Source: Squalus acanthias (lineage: Eukaryota). From it: a DNA stretch of 64,000 bases. The position numbers and the translations under genes are program-made. The DNA lies in contig CM059431.1 of NCBI GenBank assembly GCA_030390025.1, positions 95,110,001 to 95,174,000 of the forward strand, written 5' to 3'. Shown here piece after piece: positions 40,403-61,906 of the stretch. The notes under the pieces were generated by a model that was given only the letters and a program-made list of their open reading frames with translations, had not been told where the DNA came from and made no database searches. Numbering within the stretch: the first letter of the stretch is position 1; every line of letters starts with the position of its first letter.

Positions 40403-40790
40403 CATAGGAACAGGAGTAGGTCATTCATCCCCTCAAGCCTGTACCGCCATTTGATTAGATCATGGATGATCTGTATCTTAACTCCATCTACCCACCTTGG
40501 TTCGATAACACTGAATATGCTTGCCTAACAAAAATCTATCAATCCCAGTTTTGAAATTTTCAATTAACCTAGTCTCAACAGCTTTTTGAGAGAGAGAGTT
40601 TCAGATTTCCAATACCCTTTGTGTGAAGAAGTGCTTCCTAACATCACCCCTGAACTGCCTAGCTCTAATTTTAAGGATATTCCCCTATGTGTTGGACTCC
40701 CCAAACAAAGAAATTGTTTCTATCTACCCTATAAAATCATTTAATCATCTTAAATACCTCAATTAGATCACCCCTTAATCTTCTATAAAT

Positions 40791-40915
40791 GTGAGAAGTT
40801 GCACAACAGGTTATAGTCCAACAGTTTTATTTGAAATCACAAGCTTTCGGAGCTGCTGCCCCTTCGTCAGGTGAAGTGAAGAGATACATATAGGCACAGC
40901 ATATATAGTCAGAGA
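40791..40915 (-). mobile_element. Penelope pLTR fragment
   Basis: Reverse complement closely matches 42172-42265. Confidence 0.85.
40837..40874 (-). ncRNA. Minimal type I hammerhead ribozyme motif
   Basis: TCAC-CTGACGA-A-GGGGC-AGCA-GCTCC-GAAA-GC-TT-GTGA on minus. Confidence 0.75.
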
Positions 40916-41684
40916 ACACAAGGGAATACTAGCCTAGTCTATGCAACATGTCCTAATTTAACCTTTATAGGCCCAGTATTATTCTGGTGAATCTGCGCTG
41001 CATCCGCTACAAAGCCAATATATCCTTCCTGAGGTGCAGTGCCTAGAACTGAATACAGTGACTCCAGATGGGGGTCTAACCAGAACATTATATAACTGTA
41101 ACATAACATCTACCCTATTGTATTCCAGCCCCCTTGAGATAAAGGCCAAAATTACGTTAGCATTTTTAATTTTCAATTGACCTCAGCCTCAACAGCTTTT
41201 TGGGGGAAAGAGTACCAGATTTCCACTACCCTTTGTGTGAAGAAGTGCTTTCTGACATCACAACTAAATGGCCTAGCTCTAATTTTAAGGTTATCATAGA
41301 ATCATAGGATGATACAGCACAGGAGGAGGTCATTCGGCCCATCGTGCCTGAGTCGGCTCTTTGGTGAGCTATACAATTAGTCCCATTCCCCGGCTTATTC
41401 CTCATGGCCCTGTAAATATTTTCCCTTCAAGTTCATCTAATTCTTTTTTGAAAGTTACTATTGAATTTGATTCCACCACCCTTTCAGGCAGTGTTTTCTA
41501 GATCACAACAACTTGCTGCTTAAAAAAATGTTTCCTCATGTCGCCTCTGGTTCATTTGCCAAGCACCTTCTTAAAGTGTGGTGCCCATAATTAAACACAA
41601 TACTCTAGCTGAGGCCTAACCAGTGTTTTATAAAGGTTTAGCATAACTTCCTTGTTTTTGTACTCTATTCCTCTATTAATAAAG

Positions 41685-42272
41685 GTGAGAAGTCGCACAA
41701 CACCAGGTTATAGTCCAACAGTTTTATTTGAAACCACAAGCTTTCGGAGCGCTGCTCCTTCGTCAGGCTGATAGCCAAGTTCCGCACTAATGAAGACGGT
41801 CTCAATCGGGATCTTGGGTTTATGTCACGATACATGACGTGATCCGGACTCGAGTCGTCGTTAGCTTGTTCACAGATGTGATTCCCAGTAAAAAAGTAAA
41901 AATTTTCCCAGTAAAAAAGTAAAAAAATTTTAAAGCTTTTCGTTTTACATACAGACGGCAGCTTTTGACACGTTAGAACCCCTGCGACTACACCTCATTG
42001 TCTCAGTTGTATCTTGCTATGTCTTTGATGTGGTACCTTCCTGGCTGACTTAATTAACTTTATCACACCTCGGCAGATAGTCAGGATGATTTAATTTATT
42101 GGTCTGCAATTGTAAAGTACACATGCTTTGTTTTCTATCTATATATGCTTTGGCGATTCTGTATCTAATTTACTTCACCTGAGGAAGGAGCAATCGATAG
42201 CTCCGAAAGCTTGTGATTTCAAATAAAACTGTTGGACTATAACCTGGTGTTGTGCGACCTCTCAATTTTGTC
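41685..42272 (+). mobile_element. 5'-truncated Penelope-like element with inverted pLTR piece (41685-41767)
   Basis: 41768-41842 encodes LIAKFRTNEDGLNRDLGFMSRYMT* (GLN motif of PLE GIY-YIG C-termini); 3' pLTR 42172-42272; inverted copy at the 5' end. Confidence 0.9.
42175..42216 (+). ncRNA. Minimal type I hammerhead ribozyme motif
   Basis: TCAC-CTGAGGA-A-GGAGC-AATCGATA-GCTCC-GAAA-GC-TT-GTGA. Confidence 0.8.
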
Positions 42273-43092
42273 TGCACATTTCACCAGTTTGTCTATGTCC
42301 TCCTGAAGTCTTATTATCTTTCTAATTATTTTCTATATTTCCAAGATATGTGTCATCTGAAAACTTTGAAAATGTGTCTTGTATACCCAAGCCCAGGTCA
42401 TTAATATATATCAAAAAGAGCAGTGGTCCTAATACCGACCCCCGGAAACATCACTGTATACTTCCCTCAGTCTGAAAAACAACTGTTCACCACTACTCTC
42501 TACTTAGCCAATTTCATATCCATGCTGCCACTGTCCCTTTAATCACATGGGCTTTAATTTTGCTAACAATCTATGATGTGGCACTTTGTCAAACGCTATT
42601 TGGAAGTCCATATACAGAACATCAACCGCACTAACCTCATGAAATCTCTCCGTTACTTCATCAGAGACTGCCAACCATTTAAGTACATCCTCTTTATCTA
42701 ATATTATCCTATCCAACATCGCTACTACCCCCTCCTTTACTGCTACATTGGCAGCATCCTCTTCTCTAGTGAAGCCAGATGCAAAGTACTCATTTAGTAC
42801 CTCAGCCATGCCCTCTGCCTCCACAAGATTTCCTTTATGGTCCCTAATCGGCCCCACCTTTCCTTTCATTACCCTTTACTATTTATATGTTTATAAAAGA
42901 CTTTTGTGTTCCTTTTTATGTTACCCGCTAATTTATGCTCATACTCTCTTGCTGTTAGCCTCACTGGTTATTCCTATCTTAAAATTCAGGCCATATCTTT
43001 AGTCATCCAAGTAGTTCTAGCTTCAGATGCCCTTTCCTTTCGCCCTCATGAGAATGTGTCCATTCTATACCCGAACCATCTCATCTTTGAAG

Positions 43093-44030
43093 AACATAAG
43101 AATTAGGAGCAGGAGTAGGCCATACGGCCCTTCAAGCCTGCTCCGCCATTCACTAAAATTATGGCTGATCTTCGACCTCAACTCCGCTTTCCCGCCCGAT
43201 CCCCATATCGCTTGATTCCCCTAGAGTCCAAAAATCTATCTATCTCAGCCTTGAATATACTCAACGATAGAGACTCCACAGCCCTTTAGGGTACAGAATT
43301 CCAAAGATTCACAACCCTCTGAGTAAATAAATTCCTCCTCATCTCAGTCTTAAATGGCCAACCCTTTATCCTGTGACTATGCCCCCTATTTCTAGCCTCT
43401 CCAGCCAGGGGAAACAACCTCTCAGCATCTACCCAGTCAATCCCCCTCAGAATCTTATATGTTTCAATGAGATCACCTCTCATTCTTCTAAACTCCAGAA
43501 AGTATAGGCCCAATCTACTCAAACTCTCCTCATAGGAATACCCTCTCAATACCCTCTCATCCAGGGATCAATCCAGTGAACCTTCGTTGCACCACCTCCA
43601 AGGCATGTATGTCCTTTTTCAGATAAGGAGACCAAAACTGTGCACAGTACTCCAGGTGTGGTCTCACCAAGGCCCTGTACAATTGTAGTAAGACTTCCTT
43701 ACTCTTGTACTCCAACCCCCTTGCAATAATGGGCAACATGCCATTTGCCTTCCTAATTGCTTGCTGTACCTGCATGCTAACTTTCTATGTTTCCTGTACA
43801 AGGACACCTAAATCTCTCTGTACACCAACATTTAATAGTTTCTCACCATTTAAAAATATTCTGTTTTTCTATTCTTCCTACCAAAGTGAAAAACCTCACA
43901 TTTACCCACATTATACTCCATCTGCCACCTTCTTGCCCACTCACTTAACCTGTCTATATCCTTTTGCAGGCTCTTTGTGTCCTCCTCACAGCTTACTTTC
44001 CCACCTAGCTTTGTATCATCAGCAAACTTA
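43093..44030 (-). mobile_element. 5'-truncated CR1
   Basis: Tail aacataagaa; RPHLEYCAQFWSP; begins near FADDTK. Confidence 0.92.
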
Positions 44031-46190: not shown

Positions 46191-48087
46191 ATTCGGCCCA
46201 TCGAGTCTATGCCGACTCTCCGTAGAGCAATCCAGTCATTTCCATTCCCCTGGTCTATCCCCGTAGCCCTGCAAGTTTATTTCCCTCAAGTGCCTATCCA
46301 GTCTCCCCTTGAAAACATTGAGTGTCTACACTTCTAACACTTCCGTTGGCTGTGAGTTCCAGGTCCTCACCACTCGCTGCGTAAAAATATTTTTCCTCAC
46401 ATCCCCACTGTATCTTTTGCCCAAAACTTTAAATCTGTGTCCCCTAGTCCTTCTACCATCAACTAGTGGGAACAGCATTTCCCTGTCTAGCCTATCCAAA
46501 CCCTTTATAAACTTGTACACCTCTATCAAATCACCCCTCAATCTCATTTGCTCTAATGAAAACAAATCCAGCTTCTCCAACCTGTCCTTGTAGCTAAGAT
46601 CGCACATCCCCGGAACCATTCTGGTAAATCACTTTTGCACCCTCTCAAGGGCCTTCACATCCTTCCTAAAGTGTGATGACCAGAACTGAACGCAATACTC
46701 CAGTTGTGGCCTAACCAGTGCTTTATAAAGGTTCAGCATAACTTCTCTACTTTTGAACTCAATACCTCTATTTATGAAAACCAAGATCCCATATGCTTTG
46801 CTAACCACTCTCTCAATATGTCCTGCCACCTTCAGGGACCTCTGCACATTAACTCCCAGGTCCCTCCGTCCCTGCACACTCTTTAAAACTGTGCCATTAA
46901 ATGTATATTGCCTCTCCCTGTTCCTTCTGCCAAAATGCATCACCTCACACTTCTCTGTATTAAATTCCATCTGCCACTTGTCTGCCCATTCTGCTAGCCT
47001 TTCTATGTCCTGTTGCAGTTGATTGGTATCATTCTCACTGTTTGCCACACCCCCAAGTTTGGTGTCATCAGCAAATTCAGAAATTCTACTTTGTATTCCA
47101 ATATCCAGGTCATTTATATATATCAAAAAAAGCAGTAGCCCCAGCACTGACCCTTGGGGAATACCACTGTCTACCATCATCCAGTCTGAAAAACAGCCAT
47201 TTACCACAACTCGCTGTTTTCTGTCCTTAAGCCAATTCCTTATCCAAGCTGCCACTGATCCATCTATTCCATGAGCCTCAATTTTGTTAACCAGTCTTCT
47301 ATGTGATACTTTGTCAGATGCCTTCCTAAAATCCATGTCGACAACATCCATTGCATTCCCTTCATCGATCCTCCCTGTTACTTCATCAAAAAATTCAATT
47401 AGATTAGTCAAACACGATCTGCCTTTTACAAATCCGTGTTGGCTCTCCTTAATTAGCTTAAATATCTCTAAGTGCCCGTTAATTTTTTCCTTGATTATTG
47501 TTTCTAAAACTTTACCCACCACTGATGTTAAACTGACCGGCCTGTAGTTAGTAGGATTGTCCTTATACCCTTTCTTGAACAATGGTTTCACATTTGCCAC
47601 TTTCCAATCCTCAGGCACCTACCCCGCATCTAGGGAAGATTGGAAAATTATGGCAAGCTCTTCCGCTATCTCCTCCCCCAAATCCCTTAGCAATCTGGGA
47701 TGCAAGCCATCTGGTCCAGGTGACTTACCCACTCTAAGCATACCCAGCCTTTCTCGTACATCCTGTCTATCAATTTTCACCCCTTCCATTGCTTCTACCT
47801 TTTCCTTAGTGAACACCGATACAAATGACTCATTGAGTATTCTAGCCTTGCCCTGCCCCTCTAAGCATATAACACCTTCTATGTCGCTAATAGTCCCCAC
47901 CCTGCCTCTTACTACCCATTTACTGTTTACATGCTGATAGAAGATTTTTGGGTTCCCTTTTATGTTAACCGCCATTCTATTCTCACATTCTCTCTTTGCC
48001 AATCTTATTTTCATCTTCACTTCCCCTCTCAACTTATTGTATTTGGTCTGGTTCTCCCTTGAAGAATTCACCTGACATACATCATAC

Positions 48088-59494: not shown

Positions 59495-59804
59495 AATACA
59501 AACAGAACAGTGATGTAGACAGTTTGGTTTAAATCATGTTCTCAAAAAGCCTGTCTTTTCCCCTTAATGCTGCTGATAAGATAAAGCTTTTAAAGCACAG
59601 GCTTTTCATCACAGCAGGTGGTAGTATACACGCAGACAATATAAAGGGTAATGTGCTCCTTTGAGAAGAACATCAAAAGATTGTTTACAATAGAGCCATG
59701 GCTTGGGAAATCAATGATAGGAAGTAACAGTAGGGTGTGAAAAGGCATGGGTTTCTCATCTCTGTTTGGCAAACTCATCAAGCAACAGGGTGATCATAAA
59801 ACAT

Positions 59805-60031
59805 AATTGAGAGGTCGCACAACACCAGGTTATAGTCCAACAGTTTTATTTGAAATCACAAGCTTTCGGAGCTATCGATTGCTCCTTCCTCAAGCTCCTT
59901 CTTCACCTGAGGAAGGAGCAATCGATAGCTCCGAAAGCTTGTGATTTCAAATAAAACTGTTGGACTATAACCTGGTGTTGTGCGACCTCTCAATTTTGTC
60001 CACCCCAGTCCAACACCGGCATCTCCGCATC
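59805..60031 (+). mobile_element. Non-coding Penelope mini-insertion (inverted pLTR pair)
   Basis: 88-bp perfect inverted arms 59805-59892 / 59908-59995; 12-bp direct repeat ATCATAAAACAT at 59793-59804 and 60032-60043. Confidence 0.92.
59903..59944 (+). ncRNA. Minimal type I hammerhead ribozyme motif
   Basis: TCAC-CTGAGGA-A-GGAGC-AATCGATA-GCTCC-GAAA-GC-TT-GTGA, identical to 42175-42216. Confidence 0.8.
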
Positions 60032-60097
60032 ATCATAAAACATGACATAGGATTGCATCCAGCAGGAAGAAAACTATTCAAAAAATGTATTAAAGAG

Positions 60098-61906
60098 ATC
60101 ATAGAATAGTATCATAGAATCATAGAATGGTTACAGCACAAAAGGAGGTCATTCCACCCGTCGAGCTGGTGCCGGCTCTCTGCAAGAGCACTTCAGCTAG
60201 TTCCATTCCCCCGTCCTTTCCCCATAGCCCTGAATTTTTTTTTATCTTCAGGTACTTATCCAATTCCCTTTTGAAAGCCACATTTAAGTCTGCCTCCACC
60301 ACCCTTTCAGGCAGTGCATTCCAGATCCTAACCACTCGCTGCGTAAAAAAGTTTTTTCTCATGTCGCCTTTGGTTCTTTTGCCAATCACCTTAAATCTGT
60401 GTCCTCTGGTTCTCGACCCTTCCGTCAATGGGATCAGTTTCTCTCTATCTACTGTCTAGACCCATCATGATTTTGAACACCTCTATCAAATCTCCTCTCA
60501 ACCTTCTCTGCTTTGATTTATGAAGCTCAGAATCCTGTATGCTTTTTAAATCGCTTTCTCAACCTGCCCTGCCACCTTCAACGATTTGTGCACATATACC
60601 CCTAGGTCTCTCTGTTCATGCACCCACTTTAGGATTGTACCCTTTAGTTTATATTGGCCCAAAAATTCGTGAGGAAGCCTTCGTGCGAGGGTAAGGCTTC
60701 CCCGCGATCTCTCACTGCGCGTTGGCTTTTTCAGTTCCAGCTCGCACGAACTTGATGTTCTGGACAGCTGCTGTGCTGGGCTTGCGTATCCCACAGGCGT
60801 AGTTAATTTGTGCGCGCTGTGGGATCACGTGACTCAGTTAGAGCCAATGGCAGCACACCATCTTCCATTCATAACTTTCACATAAGTGCTGTGAAAGCTA
60901 TGAATACTATAGCCCCCCAAAAGACCAGCTAAACCTCAATTAAATTTTTAAAAAAACCATCACATTAATAAAATAAGTATAGTTAAATAAATTAACCATT
61001 TTAAATAAAAAATTAAATTTTTGAAAAAATTTAAAATCTTTTAAAAAGTTATAAAAATAAACTTACCTGTCTTTAAAGTCTCTAAAAAAGATATACCTGT
61101 TAAAAAAAATTCAAAATAAAACTTAATTCACTACTTACCTTGTTAAAAGTGGGTCTTTCTCCTCCTTTTTTTATGTGTAAAATCTTCCATACTTACCTGC
61201 GCGTTGAAACCACTCAGTGCACTGCATGCGCGCAGCCTGTAGCGCGCACGCGGTTCACCTAGGAACCGCCCCCTTTTCCATTCACCAAGTGCCGGTTTTC
61301 AGCGCATGCGCAGTGCATGAAGAAAACCGGCAATTGGAGACAGAATACGCGAGAGTACACAGTGCGTACTCTCGCGTATCAACACAAATTTTTGGGCCAT
61401 TGTCTCTCCTCATTCTTCCAACCAAAATGTATCACTTTGGACTTTTCTGCATTAAATTTCATCTGTCTCGTGTCCGCCCATTTCACCAGCCTGTATGTCT
61501 TCTTGAAGTCTATCACTATCCTCCTCACTGTTCACTGTACTTCCAAGTTTTGTATCATCTGCAAATTTTGAAATTGTGGCCTGTACACCCAAGTCCAAGT
61601 CATTAATATATATCAAGAAAAGCAGTGGTTCTAGTACCGACCCCTGGGGAACACCACTGTGCACTTTCCTCCAGTCCGAAAAACAACCGGTCACCACTAC
61701 TCTCTGTTTCCTGTCACTTAGCCAATTTCGTATCTATGCTGCCACTGCCCCTTTTATTCCATGGGCTTCAACTTTGCTGGCAAGCCTATTATGTGGCACT
61801 TTATCAAACGCCTTTTGGAAGTCCGTGTACACCACATCAACCGTATTGCCCTCATCAACCCTCTCTGTTACCTCATCAAAAACTCGATCAACTTAGTTAA
61901 ACTTGA
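60098..61906 (-). mobile_element. CR1 RT + 3' end, internally deleted, interrupted by a MITE and cut by an LTR element
   Basis: CATAGAAT tail; GVPQGSVL, FADDTK. Confidence 0.92.
60656..61398. mobile_element. Harbinger-type MITE (family A, 743 bp)
   Basis: Perfect 12-bp TIR GGCCCAAAAATT; ATT TSD both sides; CR1 host rejoins. Confidence 0.93.

Follow-up and report, generated by a model that had tools for sequence, protein, structure and literature searches.

How did a 227-bp hairpin with a hammerhead motif in one arm come to lie between two copies of a 12-bp repeat in the genome of Squalus acanthias, and could it move by itself? The initial annotation of this locus, which is contained in a 64,000-nucleotide stretch of DNA (hereafter the window), had proposed either an extreme 5' truncation of a Penelope-like element (PLE) or a self-propagating, retrozyme-like unit.

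Anatomy of the insertion

The element as a whole occupies 59805-60031 (227 bp). Its parts and the flanking target-site duplication (TSD) are as follows, with RT denoting reverse transcription:

59793-59804, no strand: left TSD copy, 12 bp, ATCATAAAACAT (repeat finder; single in 7/7 paralogous empty sites)
59805-59892, - strand: antisense arm, whose first bases are complementary to the inner RT start site (AATTGAGAGG...) (sequence and repeat finder)
59893-59900, no strand: junction filler of 8 nt, AGCTCCTT, a slipped repeat of the adjacent arm (59881-59892 versus 59894-59905)
59901-59995, + strand: sense arm, parent leader sequence that begins at +2 relative to the putative start (CTTCACC...) and extends as far as the inner RT start site (...CCTCTCAATT)
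59996-60031, + strand: AC-rich tail of 36 nt between the inner and outer RT start sites, on this side only
60032-60043, no strand: right TSD copy, ATCATAAAACAT (repeat finder; paralogous empty sites)

Sequence and repeat finder agreed on the perfect 88-bp fold-back, 15-nt centre, one-sided 36-nt tail and 12-bp TSD that had been described initially. The inverted arms (59801-59892 and 59908-59999) measure 92 nt at 99% complementarity and are separated by a 15-nt gap, with the inner 88 bp perfect. The spacing of the centre was therefore correct, but its description as a plain loop was not, since the 8-nt filler repeats part of the left arm. The antisense arm ends within the hammerhead core (TTGAGGA in antisense) and is missing stem I, as had been noted. 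RNA of either strand was predicted to fold into a long hairpin (-166.8 and -180.3 kcal/mol). A microRNA or hairpin RNA gene was considered and rejected, as hairpin-shaped miRNA models scored far below gathering (e.g. MIR821, 113.7 vs 249 bits) and matches of this type arise from the long stem only.

The left flank of the insertion is an older host repeat, and in all paralogues of this repeat that we fetched (7/7) the target word occurs once and the flanks are contiguous. These uninterrupted sites indicate that the fold-back is an insertion with a true target-site duplication, and the 227-bp hairpin is a real, recent insertion. Long palindromes are liable to misassembly and rearrangement, which counts in favor of an artefact, whether the assembly is wrong or a simple insertion was later duplicated and inverted as DNA. 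The clean target site in the paralogues speaks against such an artefact, as does the occurrence of the structure at hundreds of loci on many contigs with precise target duplications and a strictly one-sided tail, and we give it a negligible probability.

A young Penelope-like parent

The sense arm (59901-60000) is identical to 42173-42272 over 100 nt (100%), which upholds both the arm identity noted previously (as 42172-42272) and the youth of the family. It is also 100% identical to the 3' pseudo-LTR (pLTR) of parent copies, e.g. L061, 5902-. Two further PLE sites lie in the window:

41681-42277, + strand: second PLE insertion complex, an older inverted arm and then a young 5'-truncated copy
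40787-40920, - strand: older PLE 3' fragment of another subfamily, with CTGACGA core, stem II GGGGC/GCTCC, loop AGCA and a TATATAT box upstream

The young copy (41768-42277) contains, in order, the end of the nuclease domain (...FRTNEDGLNRDLGFMSRYMT*), a 3'UTR with TATATAT, and the hammerhead arm at 42173-42272; its end is at the inner site, and no tail follows. The older inverted arm (41681-41767) is 88% identical and belongs to another subfamily; it directly adjoins the young copy, which looks like an insertion beside or into an old one rather than a single event. Short ATCATAGAAT repeats followed by a common sequence (...acagcacagg/aaaaggaggtcattc...) occur at 60098-60131 and 41290-41330, and these stretches belong to another dispersed repeat, copies of which lie beside both PLE sites in the window. 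Open frames at 42543-43567 (- strand) and 46326-47618 (- strand) have LINE-type reverse transcriptase motifs, CR1/L2-like by eye, and are unrelated to the PLE.

The parent 3'UTR is repeated at 98-100% identity in the same assembly (3.7 Gb), and starts of the parent frame are repeated at 100% identity, with arrays having a tandem spacing of 3137-3138 nt. In L061, a tail-less inverted copy, 5'-truncated and 416 nt long, comes first, followed by a direct copy that consists, in order, of a remaining arm and tail, a 921-codon frame, the 3'UTR, the TATATAT box, and the hammerhead arm and tail. The last bases of the upstream tail likely contain the ATG, and the complex is bounded by a 9-bp repeat. 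The 921-codon frame matches RVT_1 (E 2.6e-9), and its C-terminus matches GIY-YIG at E 2.1e-4 and 21.9 bits, 0.7 bits below the Pfam cut-off of 22.6, with the motif ...YLIRC...YIGET...R...EH legible directly in the frame. That the window arm is shared with copies bearing this frame substantiates the Penelope-like origin proposed initially.

The characters by which PLEs are recognized were found in the parent and the window element taken together. The parent of the window arms combines reverse transcriptase and GIY-YIG nuclease in one frame, and partial-tandem pLTRs occur together with inverted 5'-truncated partners (11/20 sampled tails had an inverted partner). The window element itself has the one-sided tail and the target-site duplication. 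Among 20 sampled ORF starts, 16 were preceded by a 5' pLTR/hammerhead arm, and 13 of the 16 also by a TATA-bearing 3'UTR. The parent is a canonical PLE, very young and probably still active.

The pLTR segment present in the arms runs from +1/+2 (ACTTCACC) to one of two alternative 3' ends, an inner one (...CCTCTCAATT) and an outer one 36 nt further (...CATCATGA). Tail-less copies stop at leader positions 95-99 and tailed copies 36 nt later, and the 28-mer spanning the junction of arm and tail occurs 9022 times genome-wide. Tail sequence AGTCCAAC (60007-60014) is complementary to arm sequence GTTGGACT (59959-59966), such that the predicted fold encloses the inner site, a pairing that is only a hint because the region is invariant. 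The 227-bp hairpin is thus built solely from the first ~100-135 bases of a very active PLE, in two head-to-head copies.

Fold-backs recur with newly made junctions

A genome search with the 251-nt region as query gave 1924 first-look candidates, which are candidate numbers and not copy numbers, and both arms and the tail were present in 40/40 scored matches (the best 40 of the 1924). Recurrence counts in this analysis rest on exact patterns and best-scoring subsets. All 30 related loci that were aligned had the same part order, both arms and exactly one tail (second tail, 0/30), in line with the inverted pLTR pieces and one-sided tail seen in the window. The antisense arm starts as it does in the window, within about 6 nt, at 30/30 loci, with left ends spread over ~10 nt around AATTGAGAGG and right ends over ~9 nt around ...CGCATCATGA. 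Exact flanking repeats of 10-16 bp (median 12) were found at 29/30 loci and all differ except where the target itself is repetitive; with 12 bp here and the seven uninterrupted paralogues, the target duplication described at the outset is secure. Among centre matches on contig C1 below 35.5 Mb (n = 5), four had one exact tail 28-mer and none had two.

Several independent insertions have a common target word in other repeats (L089/L090/L094; L092/L103/L105/L029; L004/L009/L095; L005/L014), one such target being a CR1-like LINE segment (...INRGIEYKSKEVML), and these common words suggest strong target preference or hot spots.

The junctions between the arms were highly variable, with 22 forms among the 30 aligned loci (the commonest, ...GGTGA AGTC TTCACC..., at 9 loci) and at least 24 forms among 50 listed CTTCACC-centred loci. 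The window junction string had one exact match in the genome, its own locus, and one further locus with one mismatch, so that the search with the loop junction suggested as a way to detect a multi-locus family returned none. Sequence variants were mostly found in both arms of the same fold-back: GGGGC in place of GGAGC occurred in both arms at 7 loci and in a single arm at 1 locus, and an extra A/T in both arms at 4 loci, giving 11 arm-concordant loci and 1 discordant locus (L012) among the variant-bearing loci of the 30. The same arm variants were found in promoter-bearing parents. Within the first 20 tail junctions along contig C1, taken in contig order, both arms belonged to one subfamily in 7/7 fold-backs, with at least five subfamilies represented. 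This sample comprised 5 short fold-backs, 4 fold-backs centred in the 3'UTR, 2 with long inverted partners, 8 longer direct copies and 1 simple truncated insertion. These results indicate that the window element represents the usual form of PLE insertion at its shortest, and is one of hundreds of such by-products in the genome with the junction made anew each time.

Many near-identical copies with target duplications of their own would also be expected of a self-propagating non-autonomous hairpin, similar to retrozymes or MITEs, in which the 227-bp unit itself is transcribed and re-inserted by PLE enzymes, and the accessible part of a 2026 preprint derives animal retrozymes from PLE pLTRs (10.64898/2026.07.22.740005). 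However, the unique window junction and the diverse junctions elsewhere rule against propagation as a unit, no flank is carried over, no promoter is included, and some junctions hold parental bases that are absent from typical hairpins. Membership in the retrozyme class also requires two or more head-to-tail sense hammerheads, while the window has one complete hammerhead and its other arm is antisense without stem I, which leaves no excisable unit. We regard self-propagation as very improbable, and this half of the initial proposal is given up in favor of a by-product of an autonomous element.

Arms end close to a putative transcription start

Fold-back centres were searched with exact patterns in which an arm end and its mirror image were separated by 0-8 free bases. 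Centres at CTTCACC were found at 366 loci and centres within 8 nt of the predicted hammerhead cut at 137 loci, mostly on the AAGCTT palindrome, compared to 63 loci at a mid-arm control place that is nearer the RT start and lies in the stretch common to all subfamilies. Given this position of the control, simple truncation should favor it over CTTCACC. In the 50 listed CTTCACC-centred loci, 7 centres were blunt +1/+1 (GTAC), 6 were +1/+2 (single T/A), 2 were +2/+2 and 6 were +1/+1 plus one G/C; both arms extended into parental TTTA (TAAATTTA) in 4, and many others were unique.

The arms stop 0-4 nt from an A located 32 nt 3' of the first T of the parental TATATAT box. This A of TTTACTTCACC is the putative +1, with the context TTA(+1)CTTC and TATATAT at -32 to -26, and the corresponding motifs of the older subfamily in the window are TATATAT at -30 and TCA(+1)CTTC. 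The initiator consensus is YYANWYY, to which TTACTTC conforms. The position and sequence of these motifs suggest that the arms end at the transcription start of the parent, and in Drosophila Penelope the pLTR contains a transcription start and an internal promoter, according to the text available from PMC8557442. Because the window element begins at or just 3' of this putative start, the TATA box is not included, and a product without one cannot renew itself.

Extreme 5' truncation, the other half of the initial proposal, came close to this result without being precise, for the end point is not random and centres pile up 32 nt 3' of TATATAT. A variant of it would be plain 5' truncation at a pause site, where the polymerase stops or switches template after passing the hammerhead or on entering an AT-rich stretch. 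Such a stretch does lie upstream of CTTCACC, and 5' ends form a continuum: the 63 control centres, the centres in the 3'UTR and the long inverted partners show that the start-site class is a mode within it. A pause site leaves without explanation the ~6-fold excess over a control that is closer to where synthesis begins and so should show more truncation, and the same holds for ends that fall within 4 nt at the canonical TATA distance in two subfamilies. Nor does it account for the single G/C between blunt +1 ends (6/50 listed junctions), which in the one case that could be oriented (L022) is an extra C at the antisense arm's 3' terminus, as might result from copying of a cap. We find pausing quite improbable, and continue with an end at the putative start site as the preferred reading.

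The hammerhead motif and its role

All parts of the hammerhead described initially were found in their places on the sense arm:

59903-59944, + strand: minimal type I hammerhead motif (sequence)
59903-59906 and 59941-59944, + strand: stem I, TCAC/GTGA, 4 bp
59907-59913, + strand: CTGAGGA core, followed by an extra unpaired A at 59914
59915-59919 and 59928-59932, + strand: stem II, GGAGC/GCTCC, 5 bp
59933-36, + strand: GAAA, overlapped by palindromic AAGCTT at 59935-40 (sequence)
59940-59941 boundary, + strand: predicted cut, with the expected 5'-OH product end GUGAUUUC (motif)

The core CUGANGA ... GAAA with H17 before stem I is present (59907-59940), and judged by this motif the window hammerhead is of the standard minimal PLE type. 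The description as an intact hammerhead holds for the parts of a minimal type I motif and is not backed by curated models: Rfam gave nothing at gathering score in the window, and at E<=10 in 59700-60150 it gave hairpin-shaped miRNA and other models below threshold but no hammerhead family, a result that is expected for a motif without helix III.

Across 11 variant types, C3, G5, A6, G8, A9 and GAAA were invariant and U4 was C in 2/11, while stems I and II were paired in 99/99 cells. Stem I did not vary; stem II had 4 varying pairs, with 5 changes to wobble and one two-sided change (C-G to U-A). The stem-pairing score was equalled in 26/500 shuffles, and the conservation of pairing lends modest support to a hammerhead at the level of sequence. 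Stems I and II were present in the predicted minimum free energy (MFE) structure of the free leader. The predicted MFE of a leader dimer was -36.9 vs 2 x -13.0 kcal/mol, with pairing via stem II and the loop palindrome and not via helix III through AAGCUU.

Traces of cleavage were sought at the predicted cut. An A or G immediately 5' of GTGATTTC... was counted 318 times vs 181 at a control T 7 nt downstream (<2-fold), a count for which R was used before GTGATTTC because the V variant is swamped by the AAGCTC subfamily. At L061:2790-2810 the direct part starts exactly at the predicted cut (...GACTC|GTGATTTC), 1/21 ORF-bearing 5' regions examined. These observations weakly suggest that the hammerhead may cleave itself in vivo, and in RNA of the fold-back it would be locked in the 88-bp duplex. 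The CCGACGA subfamily (L092, L095, L103, L106), which has C at core position 4 and stem II GGAGT/ACTCC with both sides changed, still makes fold-backs with target duplications and accounted for 4/20 of the sampled contig C1 tails. The continued spread of this subfamily suggests that hammerhead catalysis is unnecessary for insertion.

Two further observations concern this region. There were ~3160 exact genome matches with C before GTGATTTC (AAGCTC, with C at cleavage-site position 17), many in -/+ pairs 65-950 nt apart, which looks like a further large fold-back subfamily. For contigs from four public runs, word depth summed over L087:659-752 (cut site to tail end) was 10-1000-fold above that of the ribozyme core and ORF, with contig depths that are not rankable.

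Proposed origin of the fold-back

We propose that the window element arose, dead on arrival, as a by-product of a very young autonomous PLE, by the joining, at the 5' end, of two copies of a short leader RNA, a reading that we hold to be probable. Transcription would start at the TATA/initiator promoter in the pLTR, a few nucleotides 5' of the hammerhead. With a start in the pLTR, every such RNA would bear internal RT start sites ~100 and ~135 nt from its 5' end. The PLE protein would nick both target strands 12 bp apart and so provide two primers, which would be used on one and the same RNA, one at the outer site and one at the inner. Both cDNAs would extend the short distance to the RNA 5' end, where one would be extended along the other by an end-to-end template jump. 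The resulting insertion would consist of the antisense arm, a junction that varies, the sense arm and a single tail, with the hammerhead carried along uncut. We infer the start site, the use of a single RNA and the order of these events, while the promoter is a motif match, and two polymerases on one RNA are a proposed step that has never been observed.

Priming of one RNA from two nicks would explain the part order, the strict single tail and the concordant arms, as well as variable junctions, spacer-free palindromic centres and slipped repeats like AGCTCCTT. The discordant arms of L012 count against it. At L088 the arms end at very different points, which would need either two RNAs or a single long RNA that is bound at two positions.

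The same part order and single tail, with arms concordant by construction, would be produced if a single cDNA from the outer site reached the RNA 5' end, folded and copied itself, with the second arm ending near the inner site. Fillers that repeat nearby arm sequence (window, L002, L003, L014) resemble slippage at such a turn. Fold-back centres, however, prefer short palindromes of the element (AAGCTT, CAGCTG and TTTTAAAA, and the TATATA box in L092), and many listed loci have perfect palindromic centres without an unpaired spacer (GTAC 7/50, AAGCTT ~31/50, CAGCTG 9/50), which are impossible for a self-folding strand and fit two cDNA ends that pair or abut. Self-copying also leaves unexplained that the second arm stops at the very 3' end used by simple tail-less copies, and very unequal arms (L088, L061) are a poor fit. 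We judge it unlikely, and retain two primers on one leader RNA as the preferred origin.

In a stronger form of the two-primer reading, which we consider doubtful, leader-only fold-backs would be a regular 'strong-stop' product in which two halves of the enzyme complex copy the same leader from the two nicked strands, one per start site. If true, perfect ~90-bp inverted repeats of the PLE 5' end, numbering in the hundreds to thousands, would be scattered genome-wide, and read-through transcripts would yield long dsRNA matching the parental leader, which could feed small-RNA silencing of the parent.

The window fold-back is ordinary in kind though extreme, being the product of a known retrotransposon class. 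As a natural record of hundreds of PLE insertion events, the fold-back family agrees with the picture of PLE integration obtained in vitro in 2024, in which there are two internal start sites, both strands are primed and the RNA template is uncut. New testable points from the family are the use of inner and outer sites one per arm, the derivation of both arms from one template, and the ending of many events at a putative promoter start.

Comparison with known systems

In twin priming of human LINE-1, which gives rise to 5' inversions, a further cDNA is primed from the second target strand, on the RNA that also templates the first, and an inverted 5' segment results, similar to the fold-back arms. 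Twin priming in L1 starts internally by microhomology at variable places, whereas here the second start is fixed and element-encoded, and both cDNAs reach the same 5' end.

PLE insertions in the available text of Craig et al. 2021 (PMC8557442) resemble those described here in that an inverted 5'-truncated copy abuts a direct copy with a tail at one end, 5' truncation is frequent and the pLTR contains a hammerhead; the tail is 30-40 bp in their elements. In contrast to those insertions, both copies here are reduced to the ~100-nt leader, with only the ribozyme region left, and the end point is recurrent and discrete instead of a variable truncation.

The closest biochemical parallel is PAc, a Poseidon element of the green anole, in the sections available from Frangieh et al. 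2024 (PMC11167929). The purified protein cleaves and extends both target strands, and RT begins inside an AC-rich stem-loop, where two adjacent internal start sites delimit the sequence that appears as the tail in the genome. Insertion of PAc is normal when the hammerhead is mutated, and reads from its RNA do not begin at the cut (PMC11167929). Two RT start sites bounding the tail, an AC-rich start region, the usability of both strands and an uncut RNA template are thus common to PAc and the element studied here. PAc differs in being another PLE studied in vitro, for which leader-only fold-backs are not reported in those sections, and the use of the inner site on one arm and the outer on the other, with arms from the same template, is seen in the genome examined here and not in those sections. 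In the literature searched, no earlier description of leader-only fold-backs was found.

The metazoan PLE hammerheads in the accessible text of Cervera & de la Pena 2014 (PMC4209133) have, as here, a helix I of 4-5 bp, an unpaired base before stem II and a short palindrome that replaces helix III, and motif pairs on opposite strands occur among them. Those pairs are 100-700 bp apart, compared to ~15-90 nt here, where one of the two in the window is incomplete. Animal non-LTR retrozymes, from the portions available of de la Pena et al. 2020 (PMC7761336) and the preprint of Li et al. 2026, are likewise short, non-coding and PLE-pLTR-related, with a type I hammerhead and no promoter of their own. 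Retrozymes, however, are arranged head-to-tail with two sense ribozymes that release a circle (PMC7761336), while the fold-back is head-to-head, with one sense ribozyme and no tandem.
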